Assembly (NCBI GenBank): GCA_045648305.1
Contig: JAZRNR010000163.1
Coordinates: forward strand, 45,929-109,928
Length of the DNA: 64,000 bases
From: Acutalibacteraceae bacterium
GTDB taxonomy: Bacteria > Bacillota > Clostridia > Oscillospirales > Acutalibacteraceae
Direction of reading: 5' to 3'
The translations under genes and the position numbers were made by a program. The stretch's first letter is position 1; each line of letters opens with the position of its first letter. The notes under the pieces were generated by a model. The model saw only the letters and a list, made by a program, of their open reading frames with translations, did not search any database and was not told the origin of the DNA. This document shows, piece by piece, positions 31,905 to 60,779 of the stretch.

Positions 31905-34900
31905 ATGAAAACAAAAATGTGGATAAGAATCATATCAACAATTCTTTCAATTCTTTTTGTGCTTGAAATTCTGCCAATTTCTGTAATGGCGGAAGAGTAC
32001 AACAAATACAAAGATTTATCAAACGCAGAACTGTTTACTCAGCAGGAAGAAAAATCGCCTATCGTTTCCGAAGTGGTTTCTGAACGCGATGCCTTCAAGA
32101 AGGTTTTTGAACGCGAAGACGGTTCGTTTACAGCAATCATTTCATCCGGTCCCGTTCACTATTTCGAAGACGGTGAATGGCTTGAAATTGACAATACACT
32201 TACAGAAACAAACGGTACAATCACAAACGAAAGTAATGGCTTTTCCGTTGACTTGCCGTCAGAGATAACATCAGACAAAAATGTAACCATAGCAACTGAA
32301 AAGGCAGAACTTTCATTTACTATGGAAAACATATCATCATCTGTAGCAGAGATCGCAGAGATTGAACCTGTTAATGATGAAACATCGCTTATGATGGGTC
32401 TTGACAACATCGCTTCATCTGTTGAATACACATCTGTTATGACAAATACTGATCTTGTGTATGATATCGGTGCAGACTCTGTTAAGGAAAGCATAATTCT
32501 TTCATCTTGCCCATCTCAGGTAACTGACTATTCATATACAATTAATACAAATGGTGCTACTCTCTATCTTAATGAAGATAACAGCATCAATGTTGTTAAG
32601 AACGGACAGATTGAGTTTGTTATCGAAGCTCCGTATATGTTTGATTCAAACGGTATTTCGACAGATTATATTGATGTATCACTTGAAAACATCGGTGAAT
32701 CTACATATACCCTTACATACTCTCCTGATTATGATTGGCTTTCATCAGACGAGAGAGTATACCCCGTAACAATCGACCCGACAACTACAGTTTATTCTGC
32801 GACTGCTATTTCGGAGGCATTTATCGGAACGGTTGATTCAACTGCAACTGATCTCGATAAGTTTCACTATTTAAAGAATGCAAATAGACTTTATTTTAAA
32901 TATTCAGATTCTGTTTCAAATGGTTTTGGTAAGAATGCAGTTATCACAAATGCTGAGTTTTCTCTTTACTGCGAGGCTTTGACGGACGATGATACTCTTG
33001 CTGTTTTTCCGATTTCTTCAGAGTGGACCGAAGAAACTGTAACTCCTGTCACAGAAACTGCAGACTTGCTTGATTATAATATCATCAAATATGGTGAATC
33101 AGCAAAACGTTATGTTTGGGATATTACTGAAATAGCGGCAAAATGGCAGATGAATCAGTTTGATAACAACGGTATATCTATAAGACAGCTTAGCGATACA
33201 ATCAACACAAAAATTTACCGTTCTACAACTGCTAATCTTACTTCGCGCAGACCTTGGTTCCAGATTGACTATGTAACAATCGATAATATGGCAGAATATG
33301 ATACTGAAACTGTCGATATGGGTAGAGCGGGTACATTCTATCTCAATAAATATACCGGCACATATTATGTCAAAAGATCAGACCTTAGTCTCAACGGTAA
33401 TGTTTCTCCTGTAGAAATGAGCTTTACATATGATCCGTGGAGTGCAAGTATTACACGAGGTTCATCCTACGGTGCTTATTGGATTACAGATTACTACAAC
33501 AAAATATTCTATAGTCAGACTGTAACAGAGAATGATATTACAAGACATCAGTATACATTCAGAGACAATGGAGGTATCAAAACACGTTTTGTCGAGGTTG
33601 TATCAACAGATGAAGATTACAGTACAGTGCCTGAAGGATTCACTGAATCATACCTCACAGATTATACAAGATACAAGGCGGTTTCAGGTGATTTAAACAA
33701 ATGTCTTTGGGTTCCTAAGTCGGATACAACTTACAAAGATTTCGCTAATATGATTATCGAGGACTCTACTTATCGTTACACGATTGACAGCATCAATAGA
33801 GTAACATCACGAGTACATAAGACAAGTGGTGCGGTAATAGCTATCGAACACAGAACAGCATCATCTGATGCAATTCGTTCTGTAACTGATGGTGTCGGAA
33901 GAAAATATGATCTTCCATCAGCAAAAGATACTAATGGCAAGACAATTACAGATAAGTTGGTAATGTACAATTCTTCAGGTAATGTGATTAAAGTTTCAAC
34001 TCTTACAGGGGATGTCGCAATCGGAGTAGATTATGGTTATACCGCAATTGATGATGCAACATCGCATCTTACAACAGTAACCTACGCTGACGGCGAAGCA
34101 ATTACTTACGAATACAACACAGACGGACTTATGACATCTGTCACTAATGTTGACGGTTCTCGTCTTGAACTTCGTTACAGCGGTGACAGAGTAATCGGCT
34201 ATACAAAGTATGCTTATTATGTATCAGCCGGCAATTCACAGAACTGCTTTGAAAGTCAGCTTGATATTAGCTTTGACGGACCGAAACAAAGAACATTTAC
34301 ATATTATGAATATGATAAAACCACTCCGTCAATTGTTACTAAGCAGCGTTATGATTCAACACTGCAGGCAACTGATTATATAAACAGTGACGGAGAATAC
34401 AGTTATACAAAAACAATAACAACCGATACAACTGAAATTGCAAGTTATTCAACAAATGACGATGAGGCAACCAACCTCATTGCAAATGGTAATTTTGAAA
34501 GTGGTAAAACAGGTTGGATAAGTGTACCGGATAATGCAAGTATCGGATTGCCTGTGCTTAGTGAAACGTTTGCTTTTGATGGAGTTTCCGGTAAAATGAT
34601 TTCGCTTAACTCAGGTTTAAGAAAGAATCTTCGTGTAGGTCAGACTATTTCAAGTTTACCCGCAAATGAAGATACAGTTTACACTTTGAGTGCTTGGGCA
34701 AAAACGTATCGTTCTGTGGCGACAAGCTATGTTAATGACCACGCACATCTCGATAAAACTTTTGCGATTTGTGTAACAGATAACGAAGGCAATGTTCTTG
34801 CACAGTATGATTTTGACACAACGACCGATGAATGGCAGTTCGGTGCTGTTTCATTCGAAACAGATGTCACTCTTGAAAATATCAAAGTAATTCTTATGGC

Positions 34901-37814: not shown

Positions 37815-37826
37815 GGTGAAAATCAT

Positions 37827-38576
37827 ATGAAAAAATTTTTGAGAATTTTGGTTATTGTGTTAACAAGTGTGATTGTACTAATTTTAGGAATAATAAATTT
37901 TCCTATTGGAATAAATACATCGGATTCTATTATTAAACCCATAGTAAAGGAAGTAGAAAATAAAAAAATGCTTTGCTATGCTTACGGTGAGAATGTTTTC
38001 GCTGAAGATTATTATAGTTTAAAGTTACCTTACGCGCATGTAAACCTTGTTTACAAAAATGAAATTATTGTGAAAGAAGTTTATACATCAAGATTCAAAA
38101 AACTTTTTCCGACAATTTTAAAAGAAAAGTTTTTGATTATAGGTAATGAAAAAATAGTTGAACATACAGGCTTTTTATATGACCCGGTGTATTATAATAT
38201 TGGCATTAATGTACCGGAAATAGTTGCTGAAAACATAAAAGAAATTTCTTTGTGTGAGGGAACTTATCATTATTATTGGTATAAGCCAACGGATGATGTT
38301 GAAACAATACATGATGTTGTCCAATCATTATATTCAGAAGAAGTCAATAATGAAGTAAAGTACAAAGAGTGCGATGTTAAGGTTGTCGAATCTCATTCTG
38401 ATCTTGAATACATAGAAAACTTTGTAGAAAATATAAAAAATTCTACAAAAATTCTTAATCAGGACGGGTATTATACTATGGATTTTGAAGACCAAAAAGT
38501 AATGTATCGTATAGAGTTCAAAGACGAGGAATTCCCTTTTTATTTAATTGTTGCTATAGTAGGGGGGATGTATTAA
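37827..38576 (+). CDS. candidate immunity protein for RHS toxin 1 (N-terminal TM anchor)
   Basis: Starts 12 nt after the toxin stop. It has the same AT-rich composition as the toxin tail. Confidence 0.55.
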   Translation: MKKFLRILVIVLTSVIVLILGIINFPIGINTSDSIIKPIVKEVENKKMLCYAYGENVFAEDYYSLKLPYAHVNLVYKNEIIVKEVYTSRFKKLFPTILKEKFLIIGNEKIVEHTGFLYDPVYYNIGINVPEIVAENIKEISLCEGTYHYYWYKPTDDVETIHDVVQSLYSEEVNNEVKYKECDVKVVESHSDLEYIENFVENIKNSTKILNQDGYYTMDFEDQKVMYRIEFKDEEFPFYLIVAIVGGMY

Positions 38577-38700
38577 GACAGGATTAGCGCAGGGGACGAT
38601 TAGCGTGAAAACCTAAAAGTGTAGACCCTGCAAAAAGACAATACTAAACCAAGGCTGTTGCAAAAATGTGACAGCCTTAGGTGCAGAAAAATATTTAAAA

Positions 38701-38743
38701 CACAAAGGGACGGTTCTTGTAGCACAGGGGACGGTTCTCTGTG
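38701..38743 (+). repeat. tandem copies of a 21-22-nt motif (CACAAAGGGACGGTTCTTGTAG, CACAGGGGACGGTTCTCTGTG)
   Basis: The second copy is identical to 41756-41776. A looser copy, GCAGGGGACGATTAGCGTG, lies at about 38589-38607. Confidence 0.7.
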
Positions 38744-38817
38744 TTAGTTAAAAATCAAAATCCCATGGGGTAACCACTCCCCATGGGTAAACCAAAATCA
38801 AATATCTTTCAACGCGG

Positions 38818-38855
38818 AAGCACCCATTAATTTGGGTGCTTTCTGCTTTGTGTTT
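38818..38855 (+). terminator. hairpin with U-rich tail (copy A of the duplicated junction)
   Basis: AAGCACCCA / TGGGTGCTT stem followed by CTGCTTTGTGTTT. Homologous to 41813-41849. Confidence 0.55.
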
Positions 38856-38883
38856 ACAAGCTTGCAAAACTTGACGAAAATCT

Positions 38884-38914
38884 AACGTTTTTGTCGAAAA
38901 ATGAGACTTTTATG
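38884..38914 (+). promoter_or_regulatory. AACGTTTTTG half-site with a degenerate second repeat
   Basis: AACGTTTTTG at 38884-38893. The segment 21 nt downstream (AGACTTTTAT) matches only weakly. About 245 nt upstream of 39129. Confidence 0.25.
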
Positions 38915-39128
38915 CATAGTAACTTGACTTAGTTCTATATAGAAGTAAATTAATAGTAAAAATGTGTTTCTATTAACAATGCCCAAAATGATTTCAAGGT
39001 GGGGTGTGACGATTCTATAATATTATATTTCTTGATATAAACATATAATTAATTTATCCGTTTGATATATTTAATTATATAAATTGTGCAGATAATATTT
39101 TATATAATAATTTAAAGGTGGGAGTCAA

Positions 39129-39665
39129 ATGTCAATAAAGTATACCGGAGAACTATTATTAATGCCTTGTCCGACAGTTTTAGTTACATCCAAAAAAGAT
39201 AATATTGAAAACATTGTAACGGTTTCATGGGCAGGAATTGCATCTTCTCATCCTGAATATATTACCATTTCTATAAATCCTAAACGTTATTCATACGATA
39301 TTATAGCTAAAACCAAAAAATTTTGCATTAACATTCCTGAAGTCGACTTAATAAATGAAATTGATTTTTGTGGGAACCACTCTGGTAGAGATATAGATAA
39401 ATTCTCGGTTTGCCATTTTACTAAGAAGTATATCAATGATTATGTGTTAATTGAACAGTGTAAATTGCATATTCTTTGTGAGGTTGAAAAAATTGTAAAA
39501 TTGGGAAGTCATCACTTGTTTATTGCAAAAGTAATAGAAAAATATCTTAATGTTGACAATACAAATAACATTCATGAATACTTAAAACCAGTTGCTTATT
39601 ATAGGCCTTATTATTATAAGCTTGAAGAGAATAATATAGGTATATATGGCTTTACAAAAAAATAA
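39129..39665 (+). CDS. flavin reductase-like (FMN-binding split-barrel) protein
   Basis: Pattern LMPCPTVLVTSKKDNIENIVTVSWAGIASSHPEYITISINPKRYSYDII, then FCGNHSGRDIDKF. Confidence 0.7.
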   Translation: MSIKYTGELLLMPCPTVLVTSKKDNIENIVTVSWAGIASSHPEYITISINPKRYSYDIIAKTKKFCINIPEVDLINEIDFCGNHSGRDIDKFSVCHFTKKYINDYVLIEQCKLHILCEVEKIVKLGSHHLFIAKVIEKYLNVDNTNNIHEYLKPVAYYRPYYYKLEENNIGIYGFTKK

Positions 39666-39727
39666 TATGATGTTTATCGTAGTTTAATTTCTAAATATGA
39701 TTATCAAAACATTCAGAAGGTGAAAGT

Positions 39728-40606
39728 ATGATATGTGGTAAGGATTTAATTATCAAGTTTTTAGATGAAACAAATACAGCTAAAGAAAGTATAACAATCA
39801 CAACATCTGAAGAAGATGCTTCTCCTTTTGATAGAAATGTGCAAGTAGGTCGAGATTCTATTGACTTAAGAATAGCAAGTTCTGGCTATAAAATAAAATG
39901 TAATTATGATTTCATTAATACATTAGATTCAAAGGTTGATGAGTATTTTTATGATATCTCACTTGAGAAAGACGGATATATTATTCAGCCTGGGGAAACA
40001 ATAATTGTCAACACAGTGGAAAGAATAAAACTAACAGGAAATATAACTGGAGAATTAACGGGACGAACTCGTTTTGCTAGAATGGGTCTATCCGTTTGTA
40101 GTGCTACAAAATTCCAAAGTTATTCTGACGCTATTATTGTTTTGCAAATATGCAATCATAATAAAGTTCCTTTAAAGATATTTCCATATCAAAAATTAGT
40201 TCAATTGGTTATTCACCAAGTAGATGGAATCCCAAATGAAAAACGAGGCAATTACCATAACGAAATAAAACTTATGAAACCGATAATTGGCGATGAAGAA
40301 TTAACAGGTTTGTCTCCTGAAAGAAAAAAGTCTATAAGTCGTCAAATGCCACAAAAATCCTCTTTTGTTACAGAAGATGGTAACATTGATAATAAAAAGA
40401 GATTGAAGCAAAACAACAAAATTATGAATATATTTTCAAAAATATTTAGTTCCATATCCGCCATTCTTGGATTAATAATAGGTATATTATGCTCTTTACC
40501 TACTTTTAATACTACGCCAATAATAGTAATGTCAATTTCATCAGTATTATTGATAGTTATGTCGGTTGTGTTAGACACAATTAAAGATAACAATTTTATT
40601 GATTAA
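39728..40606 (+). CDS. dCTP deaminase (Dcd/dUTPase)-fold protein with C-terminal two-TM anchor; catalytic Glu position is Gln
   Basis: YIIQPGETIIVNTVERIKLTGNITGELTGRTRFARMGLSV aligns with E. coli Dcd [40 protein letters not shown]. The VLEF motif reads VLQI. C-terminal hydrophobic segments are ISAILGLIIGILCSL and IIVMSISSVLLIVMSVVL. Confidence 0.65.
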   Translation: MICGKDLIIKFLDETNTAKESITITTSEEDASPFDRNVQVGRDSIDLRIASSGYKIKCNYDFINTLDSKVDEYFYDISLEKDGYIIQPGETIIVNTVERIKLTGNITGELTGRTRFARMGLSVCSATKFQSYSDAIIVLQICNHNKVPLKIFPYQKLVQLVIHQVDGIPNEKRGNYHNEIKLMKPIIGDEELTGLSPERKKSISRQMPQKSSFVTEDGNIDNKKRLKQNNKIMNIFSKIFSSISAILGLIIGILCSLPTFNTTPIIVMSISSVLLIVMSVVLDTIKDNNFID

Positions 40607-40617
40607 AGGTGATTACA

Positions 40618-41529
40618 ATGATAAAAACATTGAGGATACAACTTACAGAAGAATGCAATTTAAATTGTGTATATTGTTGCCACGAAGGAACTAAAAATGA
40701 TTTTAGCATTTTAAAAAATAGAAATTTGGCTTCTTTTATACGTGCTACATATGACGTTCTTGACATAAAAAGAGTTAAATTTACTGGTGGAGAACCGCTA
40801 GAATATGATGAAAATATCTGCGATATAATCAAAAACATAAATCGTGCTGACATACAATATTCAATAGTAACCAATGCAACAAACTACGATACTTTTATAA
40901 ATTTAGTAGAAAACACCCCCAACATTGAGGTAACCATCTCACTTCCAGTACCTCCCGACGAAACATATCTGAAAGCCTTTAAAACTATAACAGGAGCAAT
41001 TAATGAAAAAAAAGCGTTTTTGTCTGTTGTGGATTGTGTCGAGTATATGGTAGAGACCAAAAAATTTTTTAAAATAAATTATGTCTTATGTAAAGACATG
41101 AACACAACAAATACGCAAATAAAAAGCATGATTAAATATGCACAAAATCATCCTACGATACAATTAAGATTTTTGGAGACAGCAGTAAACAGTACTAATA
41201 ATAAAAACGGAAGAATGTCGAAGTTCGTGTTTACACAAAATGAGTTTGAAAAAGTTCTTATAGATTTAGGGTACGAAGAATCAGTCGCAAACAAATTATC
41301 TGACAAAAGATCGTCGTGTTTATATAATTTGGATGGTTGCATAATTAAATTTATCAAATTTTTTTGTAATAATAATTGTTATAATTGTCCAGAAGATAAA
41401 ACTTCTTTATGGTTAACTTCCACCGGTTATATAAAAAGATGTTCATACAGAAGTAGAGCAATACCTGTTGATAATTGGCAATATAATAAAATTACCAAAC
41501 AATTAGAAGAAAGTATATTTGAGACTTAA
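40618..41529 (+). CDS. radical SAM enzyme, MoaA-like
   Basis: LRIQLTEECNLNCVYCCHEG carries the CX3CX2C motif, followed by FTGGEPL. The C-terminal Cys cluster FCNNNCYNC...LWLTSTGYIKRC resembles the MoaA auxiliary-cluster region. Confidence 0.75.
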   Translation: MIKTLRIQLTEECNLNCVYCCHEGTKNDFSILKNRNLASFIRATYDVLDIKRVKFTGGEPLEYDENICDIIKNINRADIQYSIVTNATNYDTFINLVENTPNIEVTISLPVPPDETYLKAFKTITGAINEKKAFLSVVDCVEYMVETKKFFKINYVLCKDMNTTNTQIKSMIKYAQNHPTIQLRFLETAVNSTNNKNGRMSKFVFTQNEFEKVLIDLGYEESVANKLSDKRSSCLYNLDGCIIKFIKFFCNNNCYNCPEDKTSLWLTSTGYIKRCSYRSRAIPVDNWQYNKITKQLEESIFET

Positions 41530-53391: not shown

Positions 53392-53877
53392 ATGAAAGAA
53401 AAACTAATCGTCAGCTTTTTCGGCCATAGGTTCATTGACGATTCTCAGACAGTTGAACAAAAGCTCTATGAACTCCTCCGCATTATAATGAGCAGGGGAG
53501 ACAGAGAGGTCGAGTTCCTAGTCGGCAGAAATGGCGACTTTGACCTGATGACAGCGTCCGTTGTGCGAAGACTTAAAAAGGAATTAAACGCTGAAAATGT
53601 TTTTCTCACCCTCGTTCTGCCCTATGAAACCGCTGAATTGAGAAACAACGCTGAAGCTTTTGAAAACTATTACGATTCAATAGAAATCAGCGAAGCATCT
53701 GCCGATAAGAATTTTAAATATGCTATTACAGCAAGAAACAGAGATATGATCGACAGGTCAGATGTGGTTGTTGTTTACGTCAAAAATCAATCAGGCGGTG
53801 CGTATCAGTCTCTCAGATATGCAGAGAAAAATGATAAACGAATTATAATTTTATATAGCGAACAAAATGAAAACTAA
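53392..53877 (+). CDS. DUF1273/YpsA-like SLOG-family protein (second copy)
   Basis: N-terminal VSFFGHR motif and VVVVYVKNQSGGAY. Same architecture as 24099-24605. Confidence 0.55.
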   Translation: MKEKLIVSFFGHRFIDDSQTVEQKLYELLRIIMSRGDREVEFLVGRNGDFDLMTASVVRRLKKELNAENVFLTLVLPYETAELRNNAEAFENYYDSIEISEASADKNFKYAITARNRDMIDRSDVVVVYVKNQSGGAYQSLRYAEKNDKRIIILYSEQNEN

Positions 53878-53912
53878 CCGAATTTGCTTATGCAGATTCG
53901 GTTAGTTTTTTT
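53875..53912 (+). terminator. intrinsic terminator
   Basis: TAACCGAAT / ATTCGGTTA stem followed by a T7 run. Confidence 0.75.
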
Positions 53913-53970
53913 CGTGACAAACCTCGAATTCGGTCATATATAGTTATATGACAATTTCAGAGGTGATATT

Positions 53971-54168
53971 TTGAAAGAGTACAAACGCTGTATTAGTGTG
54001 ATAAGAACATATCTAAATGACACAACACTTAAACTTAATGTGAAGAAATTGGATACACTTATCAGCCAAGAACTCGAAAAGCCTGCAAATGAAATGGACA
54101 CACAATTAATTGACCTCTGCCTCAATGCACTTGTAGCATACCGAATATATATGTCAGACAGACAATGA
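53971..54168 (+). CDS. short ORF resembling an anti-sigma N-terminal fragment
   Basis: TTG start follows GAGGTG. MDTQLIDLCLNALVA resembles MDSDLVTECVDFLME of 52130-52933. May be a remnant. Confidence 0.3.
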   Translation: MKEYKRCISVIRTYLNDTTLKLNVKKLDTLISQELEKPANEMDTQLIDLCLNALVAYRIYMSDRQ

Positions 54169-54275
54169 TAGAGTGTATAGGTGGATTAAAATAAATAATG
54201 GGATTATATATTAGTATTTTAACATTACAAATTTCTATATTAGGTTTTATAGCACAACTAACCGGCTGAACAATA

Positions 54276-54668
54276 TTATTCTATTATTGCCTTTACTATG
54301 GATGATGTTTGCCACTTTACAATTTTAGTTGCATTGTTCTTTACAATGGTTGATGTTCTTTCAGATCCCCAAGGTTCTATGGCGATGATTTTTTTACCCA
54401 TTTCTTGTGCTAGTTCAATTTCAATGTTTATCCATTTGCTGTATGTAGAATAAACACCTGCTAATATTAGAATACAACTAGCATGTTTTATTTGATTTCG
54501 AATTGCTTCTTTTAATTGATAATCGTACTTTGCATTGTGTATAGGATCATCTTTAGGAACTGAATAGTTTTTATAAGAAAAATTATCAGCAGAATCTAAA
54601 AGATTAATCAATTTTTCATATGCATCGGAATAAGCCCATGAATGGCTAATAAAAAGATTATATGTCAT
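54276..54668 (-). CDS. TIR-like protein (DUF1863 / ThsB-like)
   Basis: N-terminal NLFISHSW. ILILAGVYSTYSKWINIEIELAQEMGKKIIAIEPWG carries a conserved Glu in the S.W...E context. Confidence 0.7.
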   Translation of the reverse strand: MTYNLFISHSWAYSDAYEKLINLLDSADNFSYKNYSVPKDDPIHNAKYDYQLKEAIRNQIKHASCILILAGVYSTYSKWINIEIELAQEMGKKIIAIEPWGSERTSTIVKNNATKIVKWQTSSIVKAIIE

Positions 54669-54676
54669 AATGTAAA

Positions 54677-55141
54677 TTACCTCAACTTTCGTTTTAATTC
54701 TTGATAAAAAGCATGTGTATCGATCTTTTTTGCACTTGATAATCCGTAATGTTCTAATATGTAGCTTTCTTCATAAGACTGTCTAACATCAACATACGTA
54801 GCAATATCATCTGAATTTTTCAATCTTGGCCAATAACTTAAGTAATCAGGTAGCTCTACATCTGATGACAAAAAGCTTGCCGTTGGCATATCTTTTTGAG
54901 CGGACATGCCTATTTCAAACGGAACCCACCAAGATTTCTTGGTAGACTCAGTCATTACGACAATTACGTCAGTGCAGGAGTTTAAATTTTTCTTGATGTG
55001 TTCAGTGAGTGCCTTACCGTCATTTGCTATTTCATTATCTAATACATCAAGGTATGACGAAACTCCGTTTTCATCTAATGTACGTTTCACCCATAATGCA
55101 CGTAGCTCGTCTTCTTTTTTATGAGAAATAAAAACCTTCAT
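54677..55141 (-). CDS. TIR-domain protein
   Basis: N-terminal MKVFISHKKEDE. VIVVMTESTKKSWWVPFEIGMS provides the candidate catalytic Glu. Its start overlaps the upstream stop as TAATG. Confidence 0.7.
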   Translation of the reverse strand: MKVFISHKKEDELRALWVKRTLDENGVSSYLDVLDNEIANDGKALTEHIKKNLNSCTDVIVVMTESTKKSWWVPFEIGMSAQKDMPTASFLSSDVELPDYLSYWPRLKNSDDIATYVDVRQSYEESYILEHYGLSSAKKIDTHAFYQELKRKLR

Positions 55142-55629
55142 TATGCTCCACCTCCTTTGCAATTACAAATTATTTCCAACAGTTTTTTACCAATAGGAAC
55201 AAGAATCGAAATTGAATATAGGACAATGAATAAAATCGGAATAATTTTTTCTATAGTAGTTAGTCTTATATATTTCTTATTGTTGTTCAGCTTTTCCCAT
55301 TCATATGAAAAGGGAGAGAGTGGTAATTGCTGTTCTATTTCGTTTATAATGTCATATTTTACTTTGCTAAGCCTGCTGTAACTATTAAGTGTGTATAACC
55401 ATAAAAAACAAATGCACATACCCGCCAACGACAACAGTAAACTTTTATATTCAATGGAAAAACTGATTACTGCTAATATGGCAACATTAATTGTTATAAA
55501 AATATTATTAGAATTGTTTCTTTTTTCAGAATTGCAATTTGCCATTTCGACACATGTTTTCCACTGTTCTAAAACAGTTGGCTTGTATTTTTCTCCATAT
55601 GTTGTTTTATCAGTTGAGTATAAAGTCAT
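55141..55629 (-). CDS. small multi-TM protein (SLATT/DUF4231-like candidate effector)
   Basis: First gene of the operon, with AGGAG RBS. Amphipathic N-helix LEQWKTCVEMANCNSEKR. TM segments IFITINVAILAVISFSI, LLLSLAGMCICFLWLYTL and IIPILFIVLYSISILVPIG. Confidence 0.55.
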   Translation of the reverse strand: MTLYSTDKTTYGEKYKPTVLEQWKTCVEMANCNSEKRNNSNNIFITINVAILAVISFSIEYKSLLLSLAGMCICFLWLYTLNSYSRLSKVKYDIINEIEQQLPLSPFSYEWEKLNNNKKYIRLTTIEKIIPILFIVLYSISILVPIGKKLLEIICNCKGGGA

Positions 55630-56067: not shown

Positions 56068-56979
56068 TTACAATTTATTTCGATAATTATATTTATTTAA
56101 AACTTGTTTTTTTCGCTTGGTGGAGACCTCGGTATATATTTCAGTTGTTGCCACGCTACTATGACCAAGAATTTCTTGAACAGAACGTAAATCCGCTCCA
56201 TTTGAGAGAAGATTTGTCGCAAATGTGTGTCGCAAATAATGTGGTGTTGAATTTTCATTAATTCCACAGGCTCTTTTTGCCGAATTATATATGTATTCTA
56301 TACCATGAATACTCAGTTGCTCACCAAAACGGTTTACAAATATCTTGTCTGTATTTACCGGTCTGTTATTGCGGATTTTCAGCCATCGTGTAAGGTTGGT
56401 CCAAGTGTCGTTACAGGATATATAAATGAGCCTTTGTTTTCGACCTTTACCGTGGATAAGAATTGTCCGTTCAGAAAAAATCACATCACTAAGTGCGATG
56501 TTTGACGCCTCGGCGATTCTTATGCCGGTACTAATTAAAATATCAATTAATGCAAGGTTGCGGGAATTCTTCCATGAATCAAAAAATGTTGTTTTCTTTT
56601 CAGCACGGTTAGAAAGATAGGTTAGCAACTTTGATGTTTCTCTGACTGCCAACGTTTTTGGAAGCCTCCGCTCTTTCTTGTAGCGGAAATGATGATTCTG
56701 GTAATAATTGACATCAGTATAACCTTGCTCACAAAGAAAACTAAAAAACATTTTCAGCGTAATTAGCTTTCGGCAAATTGTGTTGTCTTTGAGGTCTCGC
56801 TCTTTGGATAACACCTGCACATATTTCAGGATAACCGTTTCATCAAGCTCATTGTCTTGTAGAAATACCTGAAAATCCTTTAAATCCGAACGATAAGCCG
56901 TTATCGTTTTATCGGATAAATTTTTTGTAGATTGGATGACTTGTATAAATTCATCACTTGCTGTTTTTATACTTCTCAT
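56068..56979 (-). CDS. tyrosine recombinase (XerC/XerD-like)
   Basis: SAM-like N-domain. Catalytic region GIRIAEA, HGKGRKQR, HYLRHTFATNLL and LGHSSVATTEIYTEV. Confidence 0.9.
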   Translation of the reverse strand: MRSIKTASDEFIQVIQSTKNLSDKTITAYRSDLKDFQVFLQDNELDETVILKYVQVLSKERDLKDNTICRKLITLKMFFSFLCEQGYTDVNYYQNHHFRYKKERRLPKTLAVRETSKLLTYLSNRAEKKTTFFDSWKNSRNLALIDILISTGIRIAEASNIALSDVIFSERTILIHGKGRKQRLIYISCNDTWTNLTRWLKIRNNRPVNTDKIFVNRFGEQLSIHGIEYIYNSAKRACGINENSTPHYLRHTFATNLLSNGADLRSVQEILGHSSVATTEIYTEVSTKRKKQVLNKYNYRNKL

Positions 56980-56986
56980 TTGATCG

Positions 56987-57042
56987 CTCCTCGAAATTTT
57001 GAAAATGTGTTCGCAAAATCATTTTAACAGAATTTCGAGGAG
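56987..57042 (-). promoter_or_regulatory. hairpin able to sequester the recombinase Shine-Dalgarno
   Basis: CTCCTCGAAATT (56987-56998) is the exact reverse complement of AATTTCGAGGAG (57031-57042). The proximal arm contains the GAGGAG RBS, 7 nt from the start codon. Confidence 0.5.
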
Positions 57043-57050
57043 ATTAAAAT

Positions 57051-57108
57051 TACTTACAATAACTATAAATTATTGTAAGAAAAATAAGATAGATAACTAT
57101 TTGTTATC
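57051..57108. repeat. left copy of 58-bp perfect inverted repeat
   Basis: Exact reverse complement of 59742-59799. Contains a 10-7-10 palindrome (CTTACAATAA CTATAAA TTATTGTAAG) and a 6-5-6 palindrome (GATAAC TATTT GTTATC). Confidence 0.95.
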
Positions 57109-57126
57109 CTAAACAGGAGAGAAAAT

Positions 57127-57924
57127 ATGTCAAATATTAAACACGAATATTTAATAGAAACAATTGAAGATTTATGTAGCACTATCGAAATAATTAAAAA
57201 TGAACTTTCCAAATACAATAGCGATAAAGTTAAATACAAAACTTTATGGTATAGGGGACAACAAAATTCCAGTTGGGAAATTGTGCCATCGATTCAAAGA
57301 AAAGATAATATGGTAAACGAACAAGTTTTTTCTCACTCGTTTTATCATAATGCAAGTCAAATTATGGCAACAAAAATACCCAAAGTAGCATATGATCAAT
57401 GGATTTCAATAATGCAACACTATGGCTTACCTACGCGTCTTTTGGATTGGTCATATTCACCTTTGGTGGCATTGTTTTTTGCTTTGTCCGATTCAGAAAA
57501 TACCACCAATGAGTATTCAAGCATTACAATTATTTGTCCTGAAATGATTAATTTCAAACAAGGTTTTGATCCATATATTTATCCCATGGATTCTGAATGT
57601 GCATTTAGTTTATTAAGACCAGCCTTCAGTACTCATTATGAAAGTTCGAATAAGATTTTAGCATGCTTTTCTACTAGTAATGATTTACGAATTTATGCAC
57701 AACGAGCAGCTTTCACAATTCATGATACAAATACAAAGTTATGTGATATCTGTGATGATCCCTGTATATTCACTATCTTAATTCCATCGGAAAGGAAAGC
57801 ATATTTTCAAAACATTTTAAAAAACTTTGAAATAAACGAGAAGTATATGTATCCAGATTTATCTCATATAGCAAAACAAGTGATTAAAAATCGAAGAGTT
57901 CAAAACCAGGAAGTGCCAATATGA
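57127..57924 (+). CDS. FRG-domain protein
   Basis: Motif LWYRGQQNSSWEIVPSIQR and HYGLPTRLLDWSYSPLVALFFAL. AGGAGAG RBS. Confidence 0.7.
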   Translation: MSNIKHEYLIETIEDLCSTIEIIKNELSKYNSDKVKYKTLWYRGQQNSSWEIVPSIQRKDNMVNEQVFSHSFYHNASQIMATKIPKVAYDQWISIMQHYGLPTRLLDWSYSPLVALFFALSDSENTTNEYSSITIICPEMINFKQGFDPYIYPMDSECAFSLLRPAFSTHYESSNKILACFSTSNDLRIYAQRAAFTIHDTNTKLCDICDDPCIFTILIPSERKAYFQNILKNFEINEKYMYPDLSHIAKQVIKNRRVQNQEVPI

Positions 57925-58478
57925 AAAACGACAAAATATTAGTTTTTTTTAGTAGACCAAATCCTTACATAGAGCAACAGCAAATTTTTATTGAAAAACT
58001 ACAAAGCATATTTGGTAAGTACGATTTAAAAACTGTCACCTTGGAAGCTGGTGAATATGATTTAACAGATTCAATTAATTATTTGAAAGGGATAATAAGG
58101 CAATGTTATGGCATCGTTATAGTAGGCTTCAAACAGATACATATAGAAAAAGGGATAAAGAAAAAAGGAGGAAAACCTAATGACTCTTTTTTTTATCCTG
58201 AAGAAATTGACATATCAGGTCAATCTCTTACTAGTCCGTTTTGTCATATTGAAGGAACTATTGGACTATTGTACGATTTGCCTTTATTAATCATAAACGA
58301 AGAAGGAATACGAGAAGAAGGAATTGTAAAAGGCGGTAGATTTAGTGTGAAAACAATTAATTTTGATTTATCTAATATAGATGATTTTTTCGCTGACAAC
58401 ACGTTTAATGAACAACTTTTAGTGTGGATAGGTAAAGTTACCGACTATTATTTGTTTTTAAATCTCAAAAAGGTTTAA
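57921..58478 (+). CDS. small Rossmann-like (TIR/nucleoside-deoxyribosyltransferase-like?) protein
   Basis: ATGA overlap with the FRG gene. Alternating strand-like blocks ILVFFSRP, GIVIVGF and PLLIINE. The fold call is tentative. Confidence 0.4.
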   Translation: MKNDKILVFFSRPNPYIEQQQIFIEKLQSIFGKYDLKTVTLEAGEYDLTDSINYLKGIIRQCYGIVIVGFKQIHIEKGIKKKGGKPNDSFFYPEEIDISGQSLTSPFCHIEGTIGLLYDLPLLIINEEGIREEGIVKGGRFSVKTINFDLSNIDDFFADNTFNEQLLVWIGKVTDYYLFLNLKKV

Positions 58479-59718
58479 GGATTTTTTGAATTTCGTCTAT
58501 ATCTTCTTTAAGTTTGGTTATGCCTTGTGTAATGACATTTTTCTGTAACACCGACATGTCGGTGTCATCTTTTAGTAATTGTGTCATTTTATCGTAGTCA
58601 ATATATTTGCCGTTTATAATAGATTTTAGATCGTGAAGATTATATCTATAATAAATTCTTTCATCATATTCCCCATTTTCGAGAGCAGTCATAGGTTTTT
58701 CCTGATATATCTTAGCAAAATGGATTGCAGTATAAAAATACTCTTTTATAACATTGGGATCTTCAGTTAATTCGTGTATTCTAAGAAGTGTTGCACAATA
58801 GTTTCTAGGGCAATATAAATTCGTTTTACAGAAAAAGGAACCGATTCTATAGTGTTTAAGTGCATTGTAATAATATTTTTCATCTCCGGTTAAATTGTAT
58901 ATCCTTAAGCTAATTGCTGCTATACGTCCAATCAAATATTCTGAATTGCAGTTTTCTACATCTATATTACTTTGCAAAAAGTTTAAACAATCGATTAAAC
59001 TTTTGTTACTCTTATTCTTTTCTGCAATTTTATATTTAGCTAGTGATAAAAGTAATAAATTTTCTTCTGATGGATCGTGTTCATATAATTCTGCAAATTG
59101 CAATTCTGCTTCTTCAAAATTATTTTCTTCTAGTGCTTTGTTCCCTTCCAAGTAATAACTGTACAATGACTTGTTTATAGAATTTGGAACGTTCTGGTTA
59201 TACATTTTTCTTTCAATTAGAGCTCTATGTATAGGATTATCTGGAAGATTATCAGTGCTAGTTATGGCGAAATCAATAAATTGATTTAATTTAGTCTTAG
59301 CTTCTGCTATAGCTTTTTTATTTAATGTTAACCCACTATGCTCATAGAAAATAATAGGAACATAATTAATATCAAAAAACTTAAAATCTTTTTCTTTATC
59401 TTTCGCACAAAGAATTATTGTAGATTTTGGTTTTAAAGCATGTCTTACACCTAATTCATATATTGCATTTGCATTCATAGTGCTAATATCTGCAATAACA
59501 ATATCCGAGTTGCTTAAACAGGTAATAAACTTGTAATCTATAGAAGTTGTTCCAATTATTTCATCACATCTAAATGCATTGAATTTATCATCATTATATA
59601 ATGAATATGGTCTCAAATTGTTTTCATTAATACAAGGCTTGATTATTTCATTATATGTTAAATCGAGATTAATGTTATTCTTAATTCCAAACCCCATAAT
59701 AACAAAACAACTTTTCAT
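58465..59718 (-). CDS. DUF4071-like Rossmannoid N-domain + TPR-repeat protein
   Basis: ATG 59718 lies 8 nt after GGGGAG. N-terminal CFVIMGFG....SDIVIADISTMNANAIYELGVRHALKPKSTIIL, with a helical-repeat C-terminal region. Its 3' end overlaps the convergent gene by 14 nt. Confidence 0.6.
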   Translation of the reverse strand: MKSCFVIMGFGIKNNINLDLTYNEIIKPCINENNLRPYSLYNDDKFNAFRCDEIIGTTSIDYKFITCLSNSDIVIADISTMNANAIYELGVRHALKPKSTIILCAKDKEKDFKFFDINYVPIIFYEHSGLTLNKKAIAEAKTKLNQFIDFAITSTDNLPDNPIHRALIERKMYNQNVPNSINKSLYSYYLEGNKALEENNFEEAELQFAELYEHDPSEENLLLLSLAKYKIAEKNKSNKSLIDCLNFLQSNIDVENCNSEYLIGRIAAISLRIYNLTGDEKYYYNALKHYRIGSFFCKTNLYCPRNYCATLLRIHELTEDPNVIKEYFYTAIHFAKIYQEKPMTALENGEYDERIYYRYNLHDLKSIINGKYIDYDKMTQLLKDDTDMSVLQKNVITQGITKLKEDIDEIQKILKPF

Positions 59719-59741
59719 ATTTAATATCTCCCCGAACATAA

Positions 59742-59799
59742 GATAACAAATAGTTATCTATCTTATTTTTCTTACAATAATTTATAGTTATTGTAAGTA
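59742..59799. repeat. right copy of 58-bp perfect inverted repeat
   Basis: Exact reverse complement of 57051-57108. Confidence 0.95.
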
Positions 59800-59831: not shown

Positions 59832-60383
59832 TTGGATATTGAGAAATTAGTTCAAGAAGGTTTGGGTTTTAAATCCGGCTCGACAAATCAAAAATTTAGA
59901 ACCGATTTAAAAGACAAAGTTATAGAAACAAAACTCGACGCACTTCCTAATGGAATTGTGTCGAGTTTCATGAATGGTGAGTATAAAACATATATAACGG
60001 TTGAGGAGATAGTTTTATATCGCACATACGGTAGAGGATACAGCAAGAATAGGGGAGCTAGTTGGAACGGTAGTTATGCATCAACGGAGTTTGCTGAATC
60101 AAGAATTGATGTAAAGATAAGACTTGCGTTAAAACCTGAGTGGGTAAACACTAGATTGGTTGAGGAAAAAATACTTGTGCCGATTGGCACGAAAATTAAT
60201 GTAGGTGTAGTTGCTCCGGTTATACTTGATACGGGCACCGTATTAGATGGTGGAGCGGAACAAGTGTTGTTACCTATGAGTTGGCCCAAGGAATGGGTAA
60301 TAGGATACAGGGAAGTTACGTCAAAGCCATTAATGGACTATCCAGAATTTTGTCAAATGCCACCTAAAGATAATCGGGAATAG
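59832..60383 (+). CDS. stand-alone toxin-like domain protein (possible TNT/ART-like NAD-utilising fold)
   Basis: TTG start follows GGAGCG. Pattern VLYRTYGRG....YASTEF....VPIGTKINVGVVAPVILDTGTVLDGGAEQVLLP recalls R / S-T / GG.Q elements. The assignment is weak. Confidence 0.35.
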   Translation: MDIEKLVQEGLGFKSGSTNQKFRTDLKDKVIETKLDALPNGIVSSFMNGEYKTYITVEEIVLYRTYGRGYSKNRGASWNGSYASTEFAESRIDVKIRLALKPEWVNTRLVEEKILVPIGTKINVGVVAPVILDTGTVLDGGAEQVLLPMSWPKEWVIGYREVTSKPLMDYPEFCQMPPKDNRE

Positions 60384-60779
60384 TGCAAACAAAGTGTTTT
60401 AACAAAAAGATAGATCAAAGAGCAGAAAAAGAAAAAACAAAGAAAGAGAATAATGTAAGACGTAGAAATATTATAATTTACTATGATTTAAAATTGATTT
60501 TTGAAGGAATTTCACAATTGTATTCTTTAATGGCAGTTCTTACGGTTTCAGGAAAAAGGATATGAAAGAAAAGTTCTATGAATTTGCTGATAAACTCGAT
60601 ATTTACATAGATGATGGGATTATAAATGTAGCTTCATTACACGAAGTTTTTATAAAAAATTGATCAAATAATAATTTTTGATATATAGAGATATGTGTTC
60701 AATAGGAACTGTGTTAAAATTAAATACATTCGACTTTAACTCGAGTATGCGGAGCCAATTATTAGATTGCGACTACCCT

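Follow-up and report, generated by a model that had tools for sequence, protein, structure and literature searches.

The window, a stretch of 64,000 nucleotides from a bacterium of the family Acutalibacteraceae, contains a recombinase gene beside a three-gene cassette bracketed by inverted repeats. The recombinase gene (56068..56979, minus strand) encodes a protein of 303 aa and diverges from the cassette. The outer flank on its side (56980..57051), which was studied by sequence reading, promoter scoring and alignment of the flanks of 46 loci, carries a 12-nt inverted repeat (56987-56998 / 57031-57042). The cassette consists of two convergent units. Unit A (57127..58478, plus strand) comprises an FRG-domain gene (57127-57924; Pfam FRG, 6e-26; PADLOC candidate defence family PDC-S15, 1.3e-40) and a second gene (57921-58478) whose 185-aa product gave no family or PDB match; a terminator-like hairpin for this unit (58548..58565, plus strand) lies within the 3' end of the convergent gene. 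Unit B (58465..59739, minus strand) encodes a protein of 417 aa from its likely start at 59718, or 424 aa if read from 59739. The 3' ends of the two units overlap by 14 nt, and about 98% of the 2.7-kb segment between the sites is coding sequence. A 183-aa gene (59832..60383, plus strand) reads away from the distal site; this outer neighbour is conserved in clade-1 loci, and tblastn finds homologues of 62-99% identity at the same position in 14 loci.

This layout is as given in the preliminary description, two functional labels of which need qualification. The name 'DUF4071-TPR' for the 417/424-aa protein is weakly supported: there is no Pfam match, and an AlphaFold model comprises a Rossmann-like N-terminal and a TPR-like C-terminal domain, with weak fold matches to TPR proteins, Csm6 and ASK1; a further weak match is to a PADLOC TIR effector (E 0.006). 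The label 'toxin-like' for the 183-aa protein, which also has no Pfam match, is based on weak fold matches of its AlphaFold model (pLDDT 83) to the NADase toxins Tne2 and Tse6.

Direct comparison confirms that positions 57051-57108 are the exact reverse complement of 59742-59799; a repeat finder extends the arms to 61 nt with 98% complementarity (57051-57111 / 59739-59799). Both palindromes previously described, one of 10-7-10 and one of 6-5-6 architecture, occur in each repeat. The first forms the type-1 core site ACTTACAATAA-CTATAAA-TTATTGTAAG, located on the left at 57052..57079 (plus strand; spacer 57063-57069), with its outer arm facing the recombinase, and on the right, inverted, at 59771..59798 (minus strand; spacer 59781-59787, TTTATAG on the plus strand). 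The 27-mer CTTACAATAA-CTATAAA-TTATTGTAAG has just two exact copies within the 64 kb, one on each strand (57053-57079, plus; 59771-59797, minus), against none expected in 100 dinucleotide shuffles with up to 3 mismatches allowed, and a relaxed scan of the window returned no further credible core site. The second palindrome, GATAAC-TATTT-GTTATC, is a cassette-borne type-2 site that lies 12 nt inward of the left core (57092..57108, plus strand) and recurs as its reverse complement on the right (59742..59758, minus strand). The inner start codons had been placed 18-21 nt from the repeats: the left distance is indeed 18 nt, to the ATG of the FRG gene, but the right one is 23 nt from the likely MKSCF start at 59718. 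Measured from the cores, start codons are about 48 to 53 nt away (the longest open reading frames give left and right gaps of 32 and 48 nt).

The enzyme beside the left repeat had been called XerC/D-like, and its domains bear this out: a catalytic domain (Phage_integrase PF00589, 1.6e-36) and an N-terminal SAM-like core-binding domain (Phage_int_SAM_1 PF02899, 3.7e-14), the architecture of the Xer-like branch of the tyrosine recombinase superfamily. The nearest solved structure is XerD (1a0p, E 1e-29), and alignment to this E. coli protein shows the catalytic positions R, K, HxxR, H and Y to be conserved, with GIRIAE, GKGRKQR, PHYLRHTF, LGHSS and EIYTEV matching GLRVSE, GKGNKER, PHVLRHAF, LGHSD and QIYTHV of XerD. 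A chromosomal XerC or XerD equivalog is rejected by scores below the NCBIfam cut-offs (228 bits against 335 for XerC, 220 against 330 for XerD), as is an IntI-type integrase (TIGR02249, 107.5 bits against 265, in two fragments). Nor do the sites fit the chromosomal dif of dimer resolution, a single terminus site present as direct repeats in dimers, since they form inverted pairs 1.6-7 kb apart around variable cassettes carried by an integrative conjugative element. The window encodes no other tyrosine recombinase, and the 303-aa enzyme probably catalyses exchange at the core sites.

Related loci, of which we compared about 135 (80 genome loci collected via the recombinase; nearly all are metagenome-assembled genomes and metagenome contigs), show that well over a hundred sequences from gut bacteria share the platform design. 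In nearly every locus the dif-like core ACTTACAATAA-N7-TTATTGTAAG lies about 75-100 bp upstream of the start of a recombinase of the 303-aa family, with an inverted partner 1.6-7 kb away. Type-1 sites are 11-7-10 near-perfect palindromic cores with near-identical arms (TTACAATAA / TTATTGTAA) and spacers that vary between loci (18 types). Among the 40 loci with at least two strict sites, the spacers of adjacent pairs are reverse complements in 41 of 41 cases and direct in none, 3 sites being unpaired; most remaining loci pair under relaxed matching, and inner arms co-vary within pairs. Far from being absent in homologous loci, the 10-7-10 element is thus kept beside the recombinase family in about 100 of them, with spacers matched within pairs, as expected of the tyrosine-recombinase core site it had been proposed to be. 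Most related loci repeat only this core of 25-31 nt, with an inner extension of 0-6 nt.

The cassettes are built alike: 46 of 47 are strictly convergent, as two promoterless units with a coding density of about 98% and a median core-to-start distance of 39 nt, and none encodes a transposase or a DNA-binding regulator. Judged by matches to known or candidate defence families, their cargo consists of predicted defence-type genes, including ThsA, TIR, SIR2, a viperin-like radical SAM protein and STAND-TPR elsewhere and, through its PDC-S15 match, the FRG protein of the window. Opposing units remain paired down to 25-38% identity, and in L059 a ThsA (E 1e-56) and a TIR/ThsB-like protein occupy opposite units.

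The inversion predicted from the inverted sites is borne out by flipped arrangements among relatives. L080 and L081 have recombinase and cassette proteins that are 100% identical; their outer flanks agree, whereas the flanks on the inner side have traded places. Five further pairs are flipped (L001/L020, L012/L029, L027/L044, L055/L077 and L025/L065). The cassette of the window itself, 99.89% identical over 2749 nt in L005, is there inverted relative to a right flank of 94% identity, with the junction at the outer edge of the repeat. Both junction types coexist in 3 assemblies, as single metagenomes containing both orientations; L093 and L095 both join the same end of the cassette contig L108, and in L111 and L048 an identical recombinase flank (119/119 and 95/95 nt) is found at both cassette ends. 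In addition, at least 14 contigs break off no more than 40 nt from a core. Such mixtures suggest frequent flipping, and by extension from these relatives the cassette probably also flips in the strain of the window.

Cassettes are also replaced. In the collinear element L006 the flanks are 97% (right) and 95% (left) identical to those of the window up to the sites, whereas the cassette is unrelated; this wholesale replacement indicates that the locus is also a cassette-exchange platform. Outer arm and spacer are kept and the inner arms differ, so that the replacement boundaries fall between spacer and inner arm. Similar cassettes moreover occur in distant recombinase clades: those of L055 and L077 are 90-97% identical beside recombinases of only 67% identity. 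Cassettes with this 90-97% identity are found with different spacers, which simple spacer-matched exchange does not explain. At the level of sequence comparison, these loci demonstrate the site and the rule by which it pairs, and they show that cassettes are flipped, replaced and present in mixed orientation within samples.

The repeats, with their inner palindrome, had alternatively been proposed as promoter/operator regions, and this did not hold. Loci L133, L134 and L137 differ from L135 and L136 by inversion of a segment whose encoded protein and flanks are otherwise identical in all five, and the L133/L135 breakpoints fall inside a homologous 17-bp palindrome, GATAAT-ATTTA-ATTATC. In the type-2 platform L139, the identical GATAAC-TATTT-GTTATC flanks a cassette homologous to that of the window. 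As read from these comparisons, the palindrome is a recombination site, not an operator, and belongs to a sister family of recombinases (306-312 aa, 30-33% identical to the 303-aa family). The presence of this type-2 site within the cassette ends implies that this cassette moves between platforms of two kinds.

Evidence on transcription differs between clades. In clade 2 a strong promoter, TTGAAT-17-(TG)TATAAT, faces the cassette at a fixed position, and promoter scores of at least 10 are reached by 35% of 46 proximal flanks, against 4% in the background and 2% of distal flanks, the latter often bearing an outward-facing terminator. In the type-2 platform the site takes in the stop codon of the upstream gene, and the start codon follows 15 nt beyond it; in a plasmid of Paenibacillus the repeat itself includes the ribosome-binding site, with the recombinase gene reading into the cassette. 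In the clade of the window the inward promoter is weak. Promoter scoring found no convincing one on either window flank, the best candidates being TTAACA-15-TAAAAT (plus strand, 57024-57029 and 57045-57050) and TTTCGA-16-TACAAT; the recombinase has an extended -10 (TG-n-TAAAAT, with the -10 at 57021-57026, minus strand). Given these unconvincing promoters, that flipping toggles expression is here conjectural.

We consider it likely that the repeats are paired sites of the neighbouring Xer-like recombinase, which flips and swaps a promoterless, two-sided cassette read from outside, with type-2 sites nested within. Each 58-bp repeat would be a composite of two dif-like sites. The outer (ACTTACAATAA, 7-nt spacer, TTATTGTAAG) would be the target of the adjacent 303-aa enzyme: since the two copies are inverted and have the spacer CTATAAA in common, strand exchange inside the spacers would flip the 2.7-kb segment between them, and a double exchange with another platform copy would replace it whole. 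The inner site would be owned by the cassette and targeted by the sister family (306-312 aa, about 31% identical). The convergent, overlapping units, one comprising the FRG and 185-aa proteins and the other the 417-aa protein, leave no room for promoters of their own, and orientation would set which unit faces which flank. Transcription may then enter from a fixed outside promoter or operon, a flip may move the cell from one defence-type module to its alternative, and the whole locus may serve an integrative conjugative element as an exchangeable slot. The splitting of ThsA/ThsB-like partners over two units, together with the pairing of units over deep divergence, argues against a strict either/or switch and is equally compatible with sites that serve mainly for cassette exchange.

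An alternative that seems rather unlikely is that sites and recombinase mainly acquire and replace cassettes, as a natural kind of recombinase-mediated cassette exchange at inverted sites, that inversion is an unavoidable but neutral by-product, and that low-level expression of both units comes from weak promoters built on the TACAAT of each outer arm. The replacement in L006, the sharing of cassettes by distant recombinase clades, the split Thoeris-like partners, the lack of a strong inward promoter in the window's clade and the presence of a TACAAT hexamer in each arm would all fit such a platform without a switch. Convergent genes that overlap at their 3' ends with no terminator between them are nevertheless better suited to a mode in which just one strand is transcribed at any time; clade 2, the type-2 platform and the Paenibacillus plasmid have a strong promoter or operon on a single side; and mixed orientations in single samples point to frequent flipping.

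Much less probable is the other reading offered by the preliminary description, in which the repeats are duplicated bidirectional promoter/operators where a regulator bound to the palindromes coordinates four transcription units with no recombination. It would account for a repeat in both divergent intergenic regions ending about 20 nt before the inner starts, for the dimeric-operator shape of the 17-bp palindrome, and for an outward promoter-like site overlapping the FRG start. Rearrangement breakpoints, however, map to the repeat elements, the reduced repeats of most loci keep only the core, a consensus scan detected no promoter inside the repeat and fewer promoter-like sites in the region than in shuffles (19 vs 29), and cassettes lack a regulator; with the palindrome reassigned to a second recombinase, this reading as sole explanation is already contradicted. 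The least probable is that the differences in orientation come from RecA-dependent homologous recombination between the repeats, or from independent insertions of a transposon-like cassette with terminal inverted repeats, beside an unrelated Xer/integrase gene: a perfect 58-bp repeat could sustain rare homologous inversion and cassettes do occur in different contexts, but in most loci flipping takes place with repeats no longer than 17-31 bp, the spacing between the recombinase gene and one site is constant across about 100 loci, transposases are missing, replacement boundaries lie between spacer and inner arm, and conserved arms with varying, co-varying spacers are the signature of a recombinase site.

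A full-text literature search found no published description of such a flip-and-swap platform and no natural counterpart of inverted-site cassette exchange. The closest analogues appear to be Acinetobacter dif modules, the G segment of phage Mu and integrons. Acinetobacter pdif modules lie between dif-like sites in inverse orientation, occur in either orientation and in different contexts, and on plasmids form arrays of alternating module types that are shuffled between replicons (PMC13141974, PMC6449649). The cassettes described here are likewise framed by inverted dif-like sites and turn up in several contexts and in both orientations, and they alternate with fixed modules (e.g. Kiwa in L005, L044 and L139). 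The arm ACTTACAATAA of these sites, which we take to resemble the XerD arm of dif, belongs to near-palindromic sites rather than to distinct XerC/XerD half-sites, which implies a single recombinase. Further differences are a spacer of 7 nt as written instead of 6 bp, a dedicated recombinase gene adjoining one site, whose product is the predicted acting enzyme, in place of host XerC/D, gut Bacillota hosts that carry the loci on integrative conjugative elements or chromosomes instead of Acinetobacter plasmids, and two convergent promoterless units of defence-type cargo where pdif modules carry resistance genes.

The G, C and P segments of phages Mu and P1 and of e14 (Gin, Cin, Pin), and the Hin segment of Salmonella, are multi-kb invertible segments with convergent alternative gene sets served by a fixed external promoter, so that populations are mixed. 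The cassettes compared here also consist of two convergent promoterless units; an outside promoter stands out in clade 2 and in the type-2 platform but is weak in the window's clade, and reading from outside is a tentative parallel. Those systems, of which PinQ is an example (PMC12529663), rely on small serine invertases that work together with an enhancer and Fis, and they leave a constant 5' coding part outside a segment of tail-fibre or flagellin cargo; here a tyrosine recombinase would act on lox/dif-like sites, and whole genes of very diverse cargo lie in an exchangeable segment. A serine-invertase switch is rejected, the sole recombinase at the locus being a tyrosine recombinase.

As in integrons, the gene of a Xer-related tyrosine recombinase adjoins the primary site, and the clade-2 promoter points at cassettes that lack promoters, vary widely and can be exchanged. 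Phage-defence genes are known among the cassettes of integrons, and one integron paper reportedly treats cassette dynamics. Instead of folded attC, the sites here are simple double-stranded palindromic cores, each cassette is made of two opposed units, and flanking sites are inverted rather than direct, so that cassettes would flip rather than excise as circles. Tyrosine-recombinase inversion switches encode the enzyme beside inverted repeats, invert reversibly and generate heterogeneous populations (PMC7096588, PMC7672463, PMC9286219). FimB/E, C. difficile RecV, Bacteroides invertible promoters, hsdS shufflons (PsrA/CreX) and R64 Rci have the same recombinase-beside-repeats arrangement as our loci, but those switches act on a short promoter-bearing segment or recombine within coding sequence, whereas complete promoterless genes or operons are carried here, replaceable at the same sites. 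The size, coding density and core-to-start distances of the window segment also exclude a short promoter-bearing inverton. Engineered inverted lox/FRT cassette exchange is similar in that identical inverted sites block excision while permitting flip and double-crossover replacement, with spacer identity setting site compatibility, but it is a laboratory method and not a natural platform.

More tentatively, it is quite possible that gut Bacillota harbour widespread, undescribed 'flip-and-swap' immune platforms served by at least two sister Xer-like families with dif-like sites of their own that frame two-faced cassettes without promoters, where inversion before one fixed promoter hedges bets between alternative defence modules, double crossover exchanges cassettes and nested ends link platforms. 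If so, these platforms would constitute a functionally integron-like system built on inversion rather than excision, and nested type-1 and type-2 ends, such as those of the window, would let cassettes pass between platform families.

The 58-bp inverted repeat of the preliminary description is real, and the main interpretation attached to it is supported. A repeat finder returned arms of 61 nt (57051-57111 and 59739-59799) with 98% complementarity, 58 nt of them perfect, and the sequence confirms 57051-57108 and 59742-59799 as exact reverse complements. Both contain a 27-nt element, CTTACAATAA-CTATAAA-TTATTGTAAG, present as two copies on opposite strands of the 64-kb window; none is expected by chance, even with 3 mismatches permitted. 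A second palindrome, GATAAC-TATTT-GTTATC, sits 12 nt inward of this element on both sides. Gene calls and Pfam matches likewise bear out a three-gene cassette with a tyrosine recombinase just outside: between the repeats lie an FRG-domain gene (57127-57924, + strand) and a 185-aa gene (57921-58478, + strand), which form unit A, and a convergent 417/424-aa gene (58465-59739, - strand), unit B, which shares 14 nt with the 185-aa gene; the 303-aa recombinase (56068-56979, - strand) and a 183-aa gene (59832-60383, + strand) flank the repeats on the outside. Unit A is followed by a terminator-like hairpin, and no homology was found between units A and B; the opposed units of phage Mu, S and S', are homologous to each other. 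At the reference junction the recombinase flank leads through the repeat into CTAAACAGGAGAG, and in the flipped orientation it is predicted to lead into TTATGTTCGGGGAG. The cassette has a G+C content of 29%, against 36% for the window, which carries conjugation genes (relaxase, coupling protein and VirB4-like ATPase) and is an integrative conjugative element. Rfam (54-62 kb) and tRNA (50-64 kb) scans returned no matches.

The recombinase belongs to a large family, in which 92%- and 89%-identical relatives adjoin gene pairs very different from the window's, one encoding TIR and radical SAM proteins, the other a decarboxylase-like protein and a 1,400-aa SIR2 protein. The inverted repeats around those two pairs have the same arms as the window's and different spacers. 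A one-genome-per-species scan yielded 80 loci, from MAGs of Acutalibacteraceae, Ruminococcus and other Clostridia, and in nearly all of them a core, TTACAATAA-N7-TTATTGTAA (type 1), stands ~75-100 bp upstream of the recombinase start, with a second copy 1.6-7 kb beyond the first. When sites were defined from the arms alone, 40 loci had at least two; spacers were reverse complements in 41/41 adjacent pairs and direct in 0, with 3 sites unpaired and 18 spacer types in this set. Under relaxed matching most remaining loci become paired, and deviant inner arms (e.g. TCCCAATAA) co-vary within a pair while outer arms keep the consensus. Conserved arms combined with free yet pair-matched spacers are the pattern of lox- or dif-type sites, and the proposed tyrosine-recombinase core site stands, given these arms, these spacers and a fixed distance from the recombinase. 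Read inward, the spacer has C or T as its first base and A as its last, which brings the effective geometry close to 11-6-11; the type-1 arm presumably resembles the XerD arm of dif. The enzyme itself is Xer-like, with XerD (1a0p) closest and a full set of catalytic residues, and its scores fall short of the thresholds set for XerC, XerD and integron integrases. Its position beside the site, its family and its intact catalytic residues suggest that the 303-aa protein performs the catalysis. An exact-sequence look-up of it found no record, and in plasmid and phage databases no relative exceeded 45% identity. A scan of viral contigs for the core gave 0 matches, and phages are not an evident carrier of the element.

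What lies between the sites follows a compact design. In 46/47 cassettes two convergent units read inward, often overlapping at their 3' ends; coding density is ~98%, start codons lie a median of 39 nt from the core, and lengths range from 1.6 to 7.0 kb. The contents are diverse (51 protein clusters from 111 ORFs) and seem, from their annotations, to be defence-flavoured: FRG / PDC-S15, ThsA opposite a TIR protein, TIR opposite a viperin-like radical SAM protein, SIR2, STAND-TPR opposite an ATP-grasp protein, pentapeptide-repeat proteins opposite ATP-grasp/radical-SAM plus nitroreductase, methyltransferases, and many proteins without any family.

Recurrent cassette types are commonly seen in both orientations relative to the recombinase; some (L052/L057/L074 and L067/L079) occur in one only. 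The cleanest flip is between loci L080 and L081, whose recombinase and cassette proteins are 100% identical and whose outer flanks are identical on both sides, with the inner flanks exchanged. The window has its own counterpart in contig L005, which carries a cassette 99.89% identical over 2,749 nt, inverted with respect to a homologous right-hand flank (94% identical), the junction falling at the outer edge of the repeat. Comparison of homologous loci, one of the checks that the preliminary description had proposed, thus did find flipped arrangements. Three assemblies contain both junction types. In JAEIGA01, two flank contigs (L093 and L095) each extend 112 nt into the same end of cassette contig L108, which has sites at its ends; the cassettes of L111 and of MAG contig L048 each have an identical recombinase-side flank at both ends (119/119 and 95/95 nt, respectively). 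At least 14 contigs stop no more than 40 nt from a core, and repeats of 25-31 nt would break an assembly at k = 141 only if the junctions truly differ among reads. Taken together, L080/L081, L005 and the mixed-junction assemblies argue that paired inverted sites do invert the cassette, as had been predicted.

Cassettes are also replaced. The element in L006 is that of the window, with flanks 97% (right) and 95% (left) identical up to the sites and the same spacer, and the DNA between its sites is unrelated. Since the outer arm and spacer are common to both and the inner arms differ, the exchanged unit starts within the core. Cassettes of the window and L005 are 99.9% alike, exceeding the 94% of their backbones, and loci L055 and L077 share cassettes 90-97% identical beside recombinases only 67% identical, with different spacers. 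Different spacers around related cassettes (72-97% protein identity) are found in L055/L077, L027/L044 and L012/L029. A simple spacer-matched crossover does not explain such cases, which would imply either rapid spacer turnover or an exchange tolerant of spacer heterology. Cassettes can also be combined: L065 has a tandem pair, and Kiwa (KwaA/KwaB) is a fixed module between two invertible cassettes in L005 (8699-10969), L044 and L139 (3330-4884). These arrays are like the dif-module arrays of Acinetobacter, in which module types alternate (PMC13141974).

Other cargo surrounds the locus. The 183-aa protein, which has no Pfam family, is a conserved neighbour of the distal site, reading outward, in loci of the window's recombinase clade (clade 1); its AlphaFold model (pLDDT 83) gives weak best fold matches to Tne2 and Tse6, which are NAD(P)+ glycohydrolase toxins, and to Rhs1-CT, and an immunity function is possible for the small ORF that follows its gene (60383-60565). 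The stretch 53392-55629, just downstream of the recombinase, encodes an 8xMP membrane protein, two ThsB-like TIR proteins and a 161-aa ORF, all missing from the otherwise collinear L006; this is a second variable cargo spot, with no type-1 site near it. Further cargo of the same conjugative element (31905-41529) includes an RHS-repeat protein of 1,969 aa and, side by side, a dCTP-deaminase-like gene and a radical SAM gene, possibly a further defence pair.

In most loci the repeat consists of the core only, with an inner extension of 0-6 nt. A motif GATAAY-N5-RTTATC is found 9-14 nt inside both cores in the window, L005, L019, L022, L023, L036, L038 and L049, a clade-1 subset with differing cargo; by eye, L003 and L054 have a similar imperfect element. 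Homologues of the window's 417-aa protein led to a platform with a sister recombinase family (type 2), where palindromes of this kind recur. Loci L133/L134/L137 and L135/L136 carry exactly the same protein between the same flanks, a 461- plus 432-aa operon on one side and a 308-aa tyrosine recombinase on the other, with the segment inverted; outer flanks match 69/69 nt after the swap, and the sole repeat at the breakpoints is a 17-bp palindrome, GATAAT-ATTTA-ATTATC. The suggestion that the repeats are duplicated promoter/operator regions is therefore not sustained: the second palindrome in them is a type-2 site, and inversion breakpoints in the type-2 platform fall inside its homologue. A Fur/PerR-type box and an RNA hairpin or terminator were dropped on the same ground.

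In L139, the order is a 312-aa recombinase, a cassette between palindromes, Kiwa, and then a second cassette, homologous to the window's (82% DNA identity). Copies of the identical palindrome, GATAACTATTTGTTATC, bound this second cassette, and its homology with the window begins right after the type-1 core. At L125 (5885-7877), a convergent 413-aa and 185-aa pair lies between 56-nt repeats holding the same kind of palindrome, adjoined by a 306-aa recombinase. This locus type (L125-L132) occurs in 505 blocks of a public collection, beside pyrimidine-biosynthesis genes; among the examples listed, 8/8 are metagenome assemblies (at least one labelled human gut) and 8/8 have the same orientation. 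Logan assemblies use a small k-mer (31), and ~1.94-kb Logan contigs were rejected as evidence of flipping: a 56-nt repeat exceeds that k-mer and would break contigs regardless. Type-2 recombinases are 47-58% identical among themselves and ~31% identical to the window's, and no type-2 recombinase gene is encoded in the window. Because the palindrome has homologues in type-2 platforms, we read the 58-bp repeat as a type-1 core, a 12-nt linker and a cassette-borne type-2 site. Re-parsed as GATAA-N7-TTATC, the palindrome shares its centre, ATAA-N7-TTAT, with the type-1 core. A metagenome scan with the window-specific inner repeat gave 0 matches in a collection without L005's contig, which carries the repeat.

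Whether flipping toggles expression is a separate question. The architecture, with no room for promoters within the units and with convergent overlap, would make expression depend on orientation. In loci of another recombinase clade (clade 2), an inward-facing TTGAAT-17-(TG)TATAAT lies ~15 nt beyond the core on the recombinase side, in divergent arrangement with the extended -10 of the recombinase gene itself, and distal flanks often have a terminator oriented for transcripts exiting the cassette. Promoter scores of at least 10 were reached in 35% of the 46 proximal flanks, compared with 4% of windows from the background and 2% of distal flanks. The type-2 platform has an upstream operon whose last stop codon falls in the site, with a start codon 15 nt beyond the site. 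The window's clade offers only weak inward candidates, TTAACA-15-TAAAAT or TTTCGA-16-TACAAT (the latter using the arm), and we claim no mapped promoter for the window locus, since scans of the repeat and flanks found no consensus promoter above AT-rich background. A real counter-argument to a strict either/or switch is that in some cassettes the two partners of a known two-gene system stand on opposite sides, as ThsA and a TIR protein do in L059, and that opposed units remain paired over deep divergence. In view of this counter-argument, we rate the chances that flipping toggles expression as about even, and consider a recombinase-driven flip-and-swap cassette highly probable.

Two further features may bear on transcription. 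A 12-nt perfect inverted repeat, CTCCTCGAAATT / AATTTCGAGGAG (56987-56998 and 57031-57042), lies on either side of the recombinase gene's promoter and overlies that gene's ribosome-binding site; conserved in clade-1 flanks but not in those of clade 2, it is a candidate operator or anti-Shine-Dalgarno element. A promoter-like TTGACA-16-TAGGAT (57106-57133, - strand) overlaps the FRG start codon and is directed outward, across the left repeat and at the recombinase; a real promoter here would mean that cassette orientation alters transcription outside the cassette too.

The best plasmid-database match, on Paenibacillus sp. IHBB 10380 plasmid NZ_CP010977 (L124, 7705-11300), has the same architecture and a recombinase 44% identical. 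A 30-nt perfect inverted repeat, CCTAATAA-CTATGAA-TTATTTGG plus a ribosome-binding site, encloses two convergent genes, and the recombinase gene is oriented so that it reads directly into this cassette. As a complete plasmid of a cultured isolate, it is a tractable candidate for experiments.

The comparisons thus show a defined site, a pairing rule, flipping, replacement and mixed populations, in a broad, apparently undescribed family of which the window locus is one member. Its kind is already known, and the locus is a variant of site-specific inversion with dif-module-like exchange; it lacks defining features of each closest analogue. Acinetobacter dif modules follow the same module logic but depend on host XerC/D, have asymmetric sites and carry other cargo; the G segment of Mu and related segments are likewise two-faced and invertible, but rely on serine invertases; integrons share the platform idea but work by excision and with attC sites; the enzyme class also recurs in promoter invertons and hsdS shufflons, where a different object is flipped; and engineered cassette exchange with inverted lox sites is among the closest analogues. 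Full-text literature searches of incomplete coverage found no description of the system, and an earlier one elsewhere is possible. A 2026 paper linked small serine recombinases to defence genes and reported tyrosine recombinases to be unreliable markers (PMC13552941).

In practical terms, such loci break assemblies and MAGs can fix either orientation, which calls for caution, and recombinases found in nature together with their sites, the spacer specificities numbering 18 or more, could serve for cassette exchange in Bacillota. Standard inverton searches target short promoter-bearing segments, and for this reason would be expected to miss multi-kb cassettes. Whatever DNA a pair of such sites encloses can be regarded as a candidate immune module, and many of the proteins encoded there have no known family. 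The system would provide a concrete mechanism for the assembly and reshuffling of defence islands on conjugative elements and, if the switch reading is true, whole defence systems of abundant gut Firmicutes would be phase-variable by multi-kb inversions.
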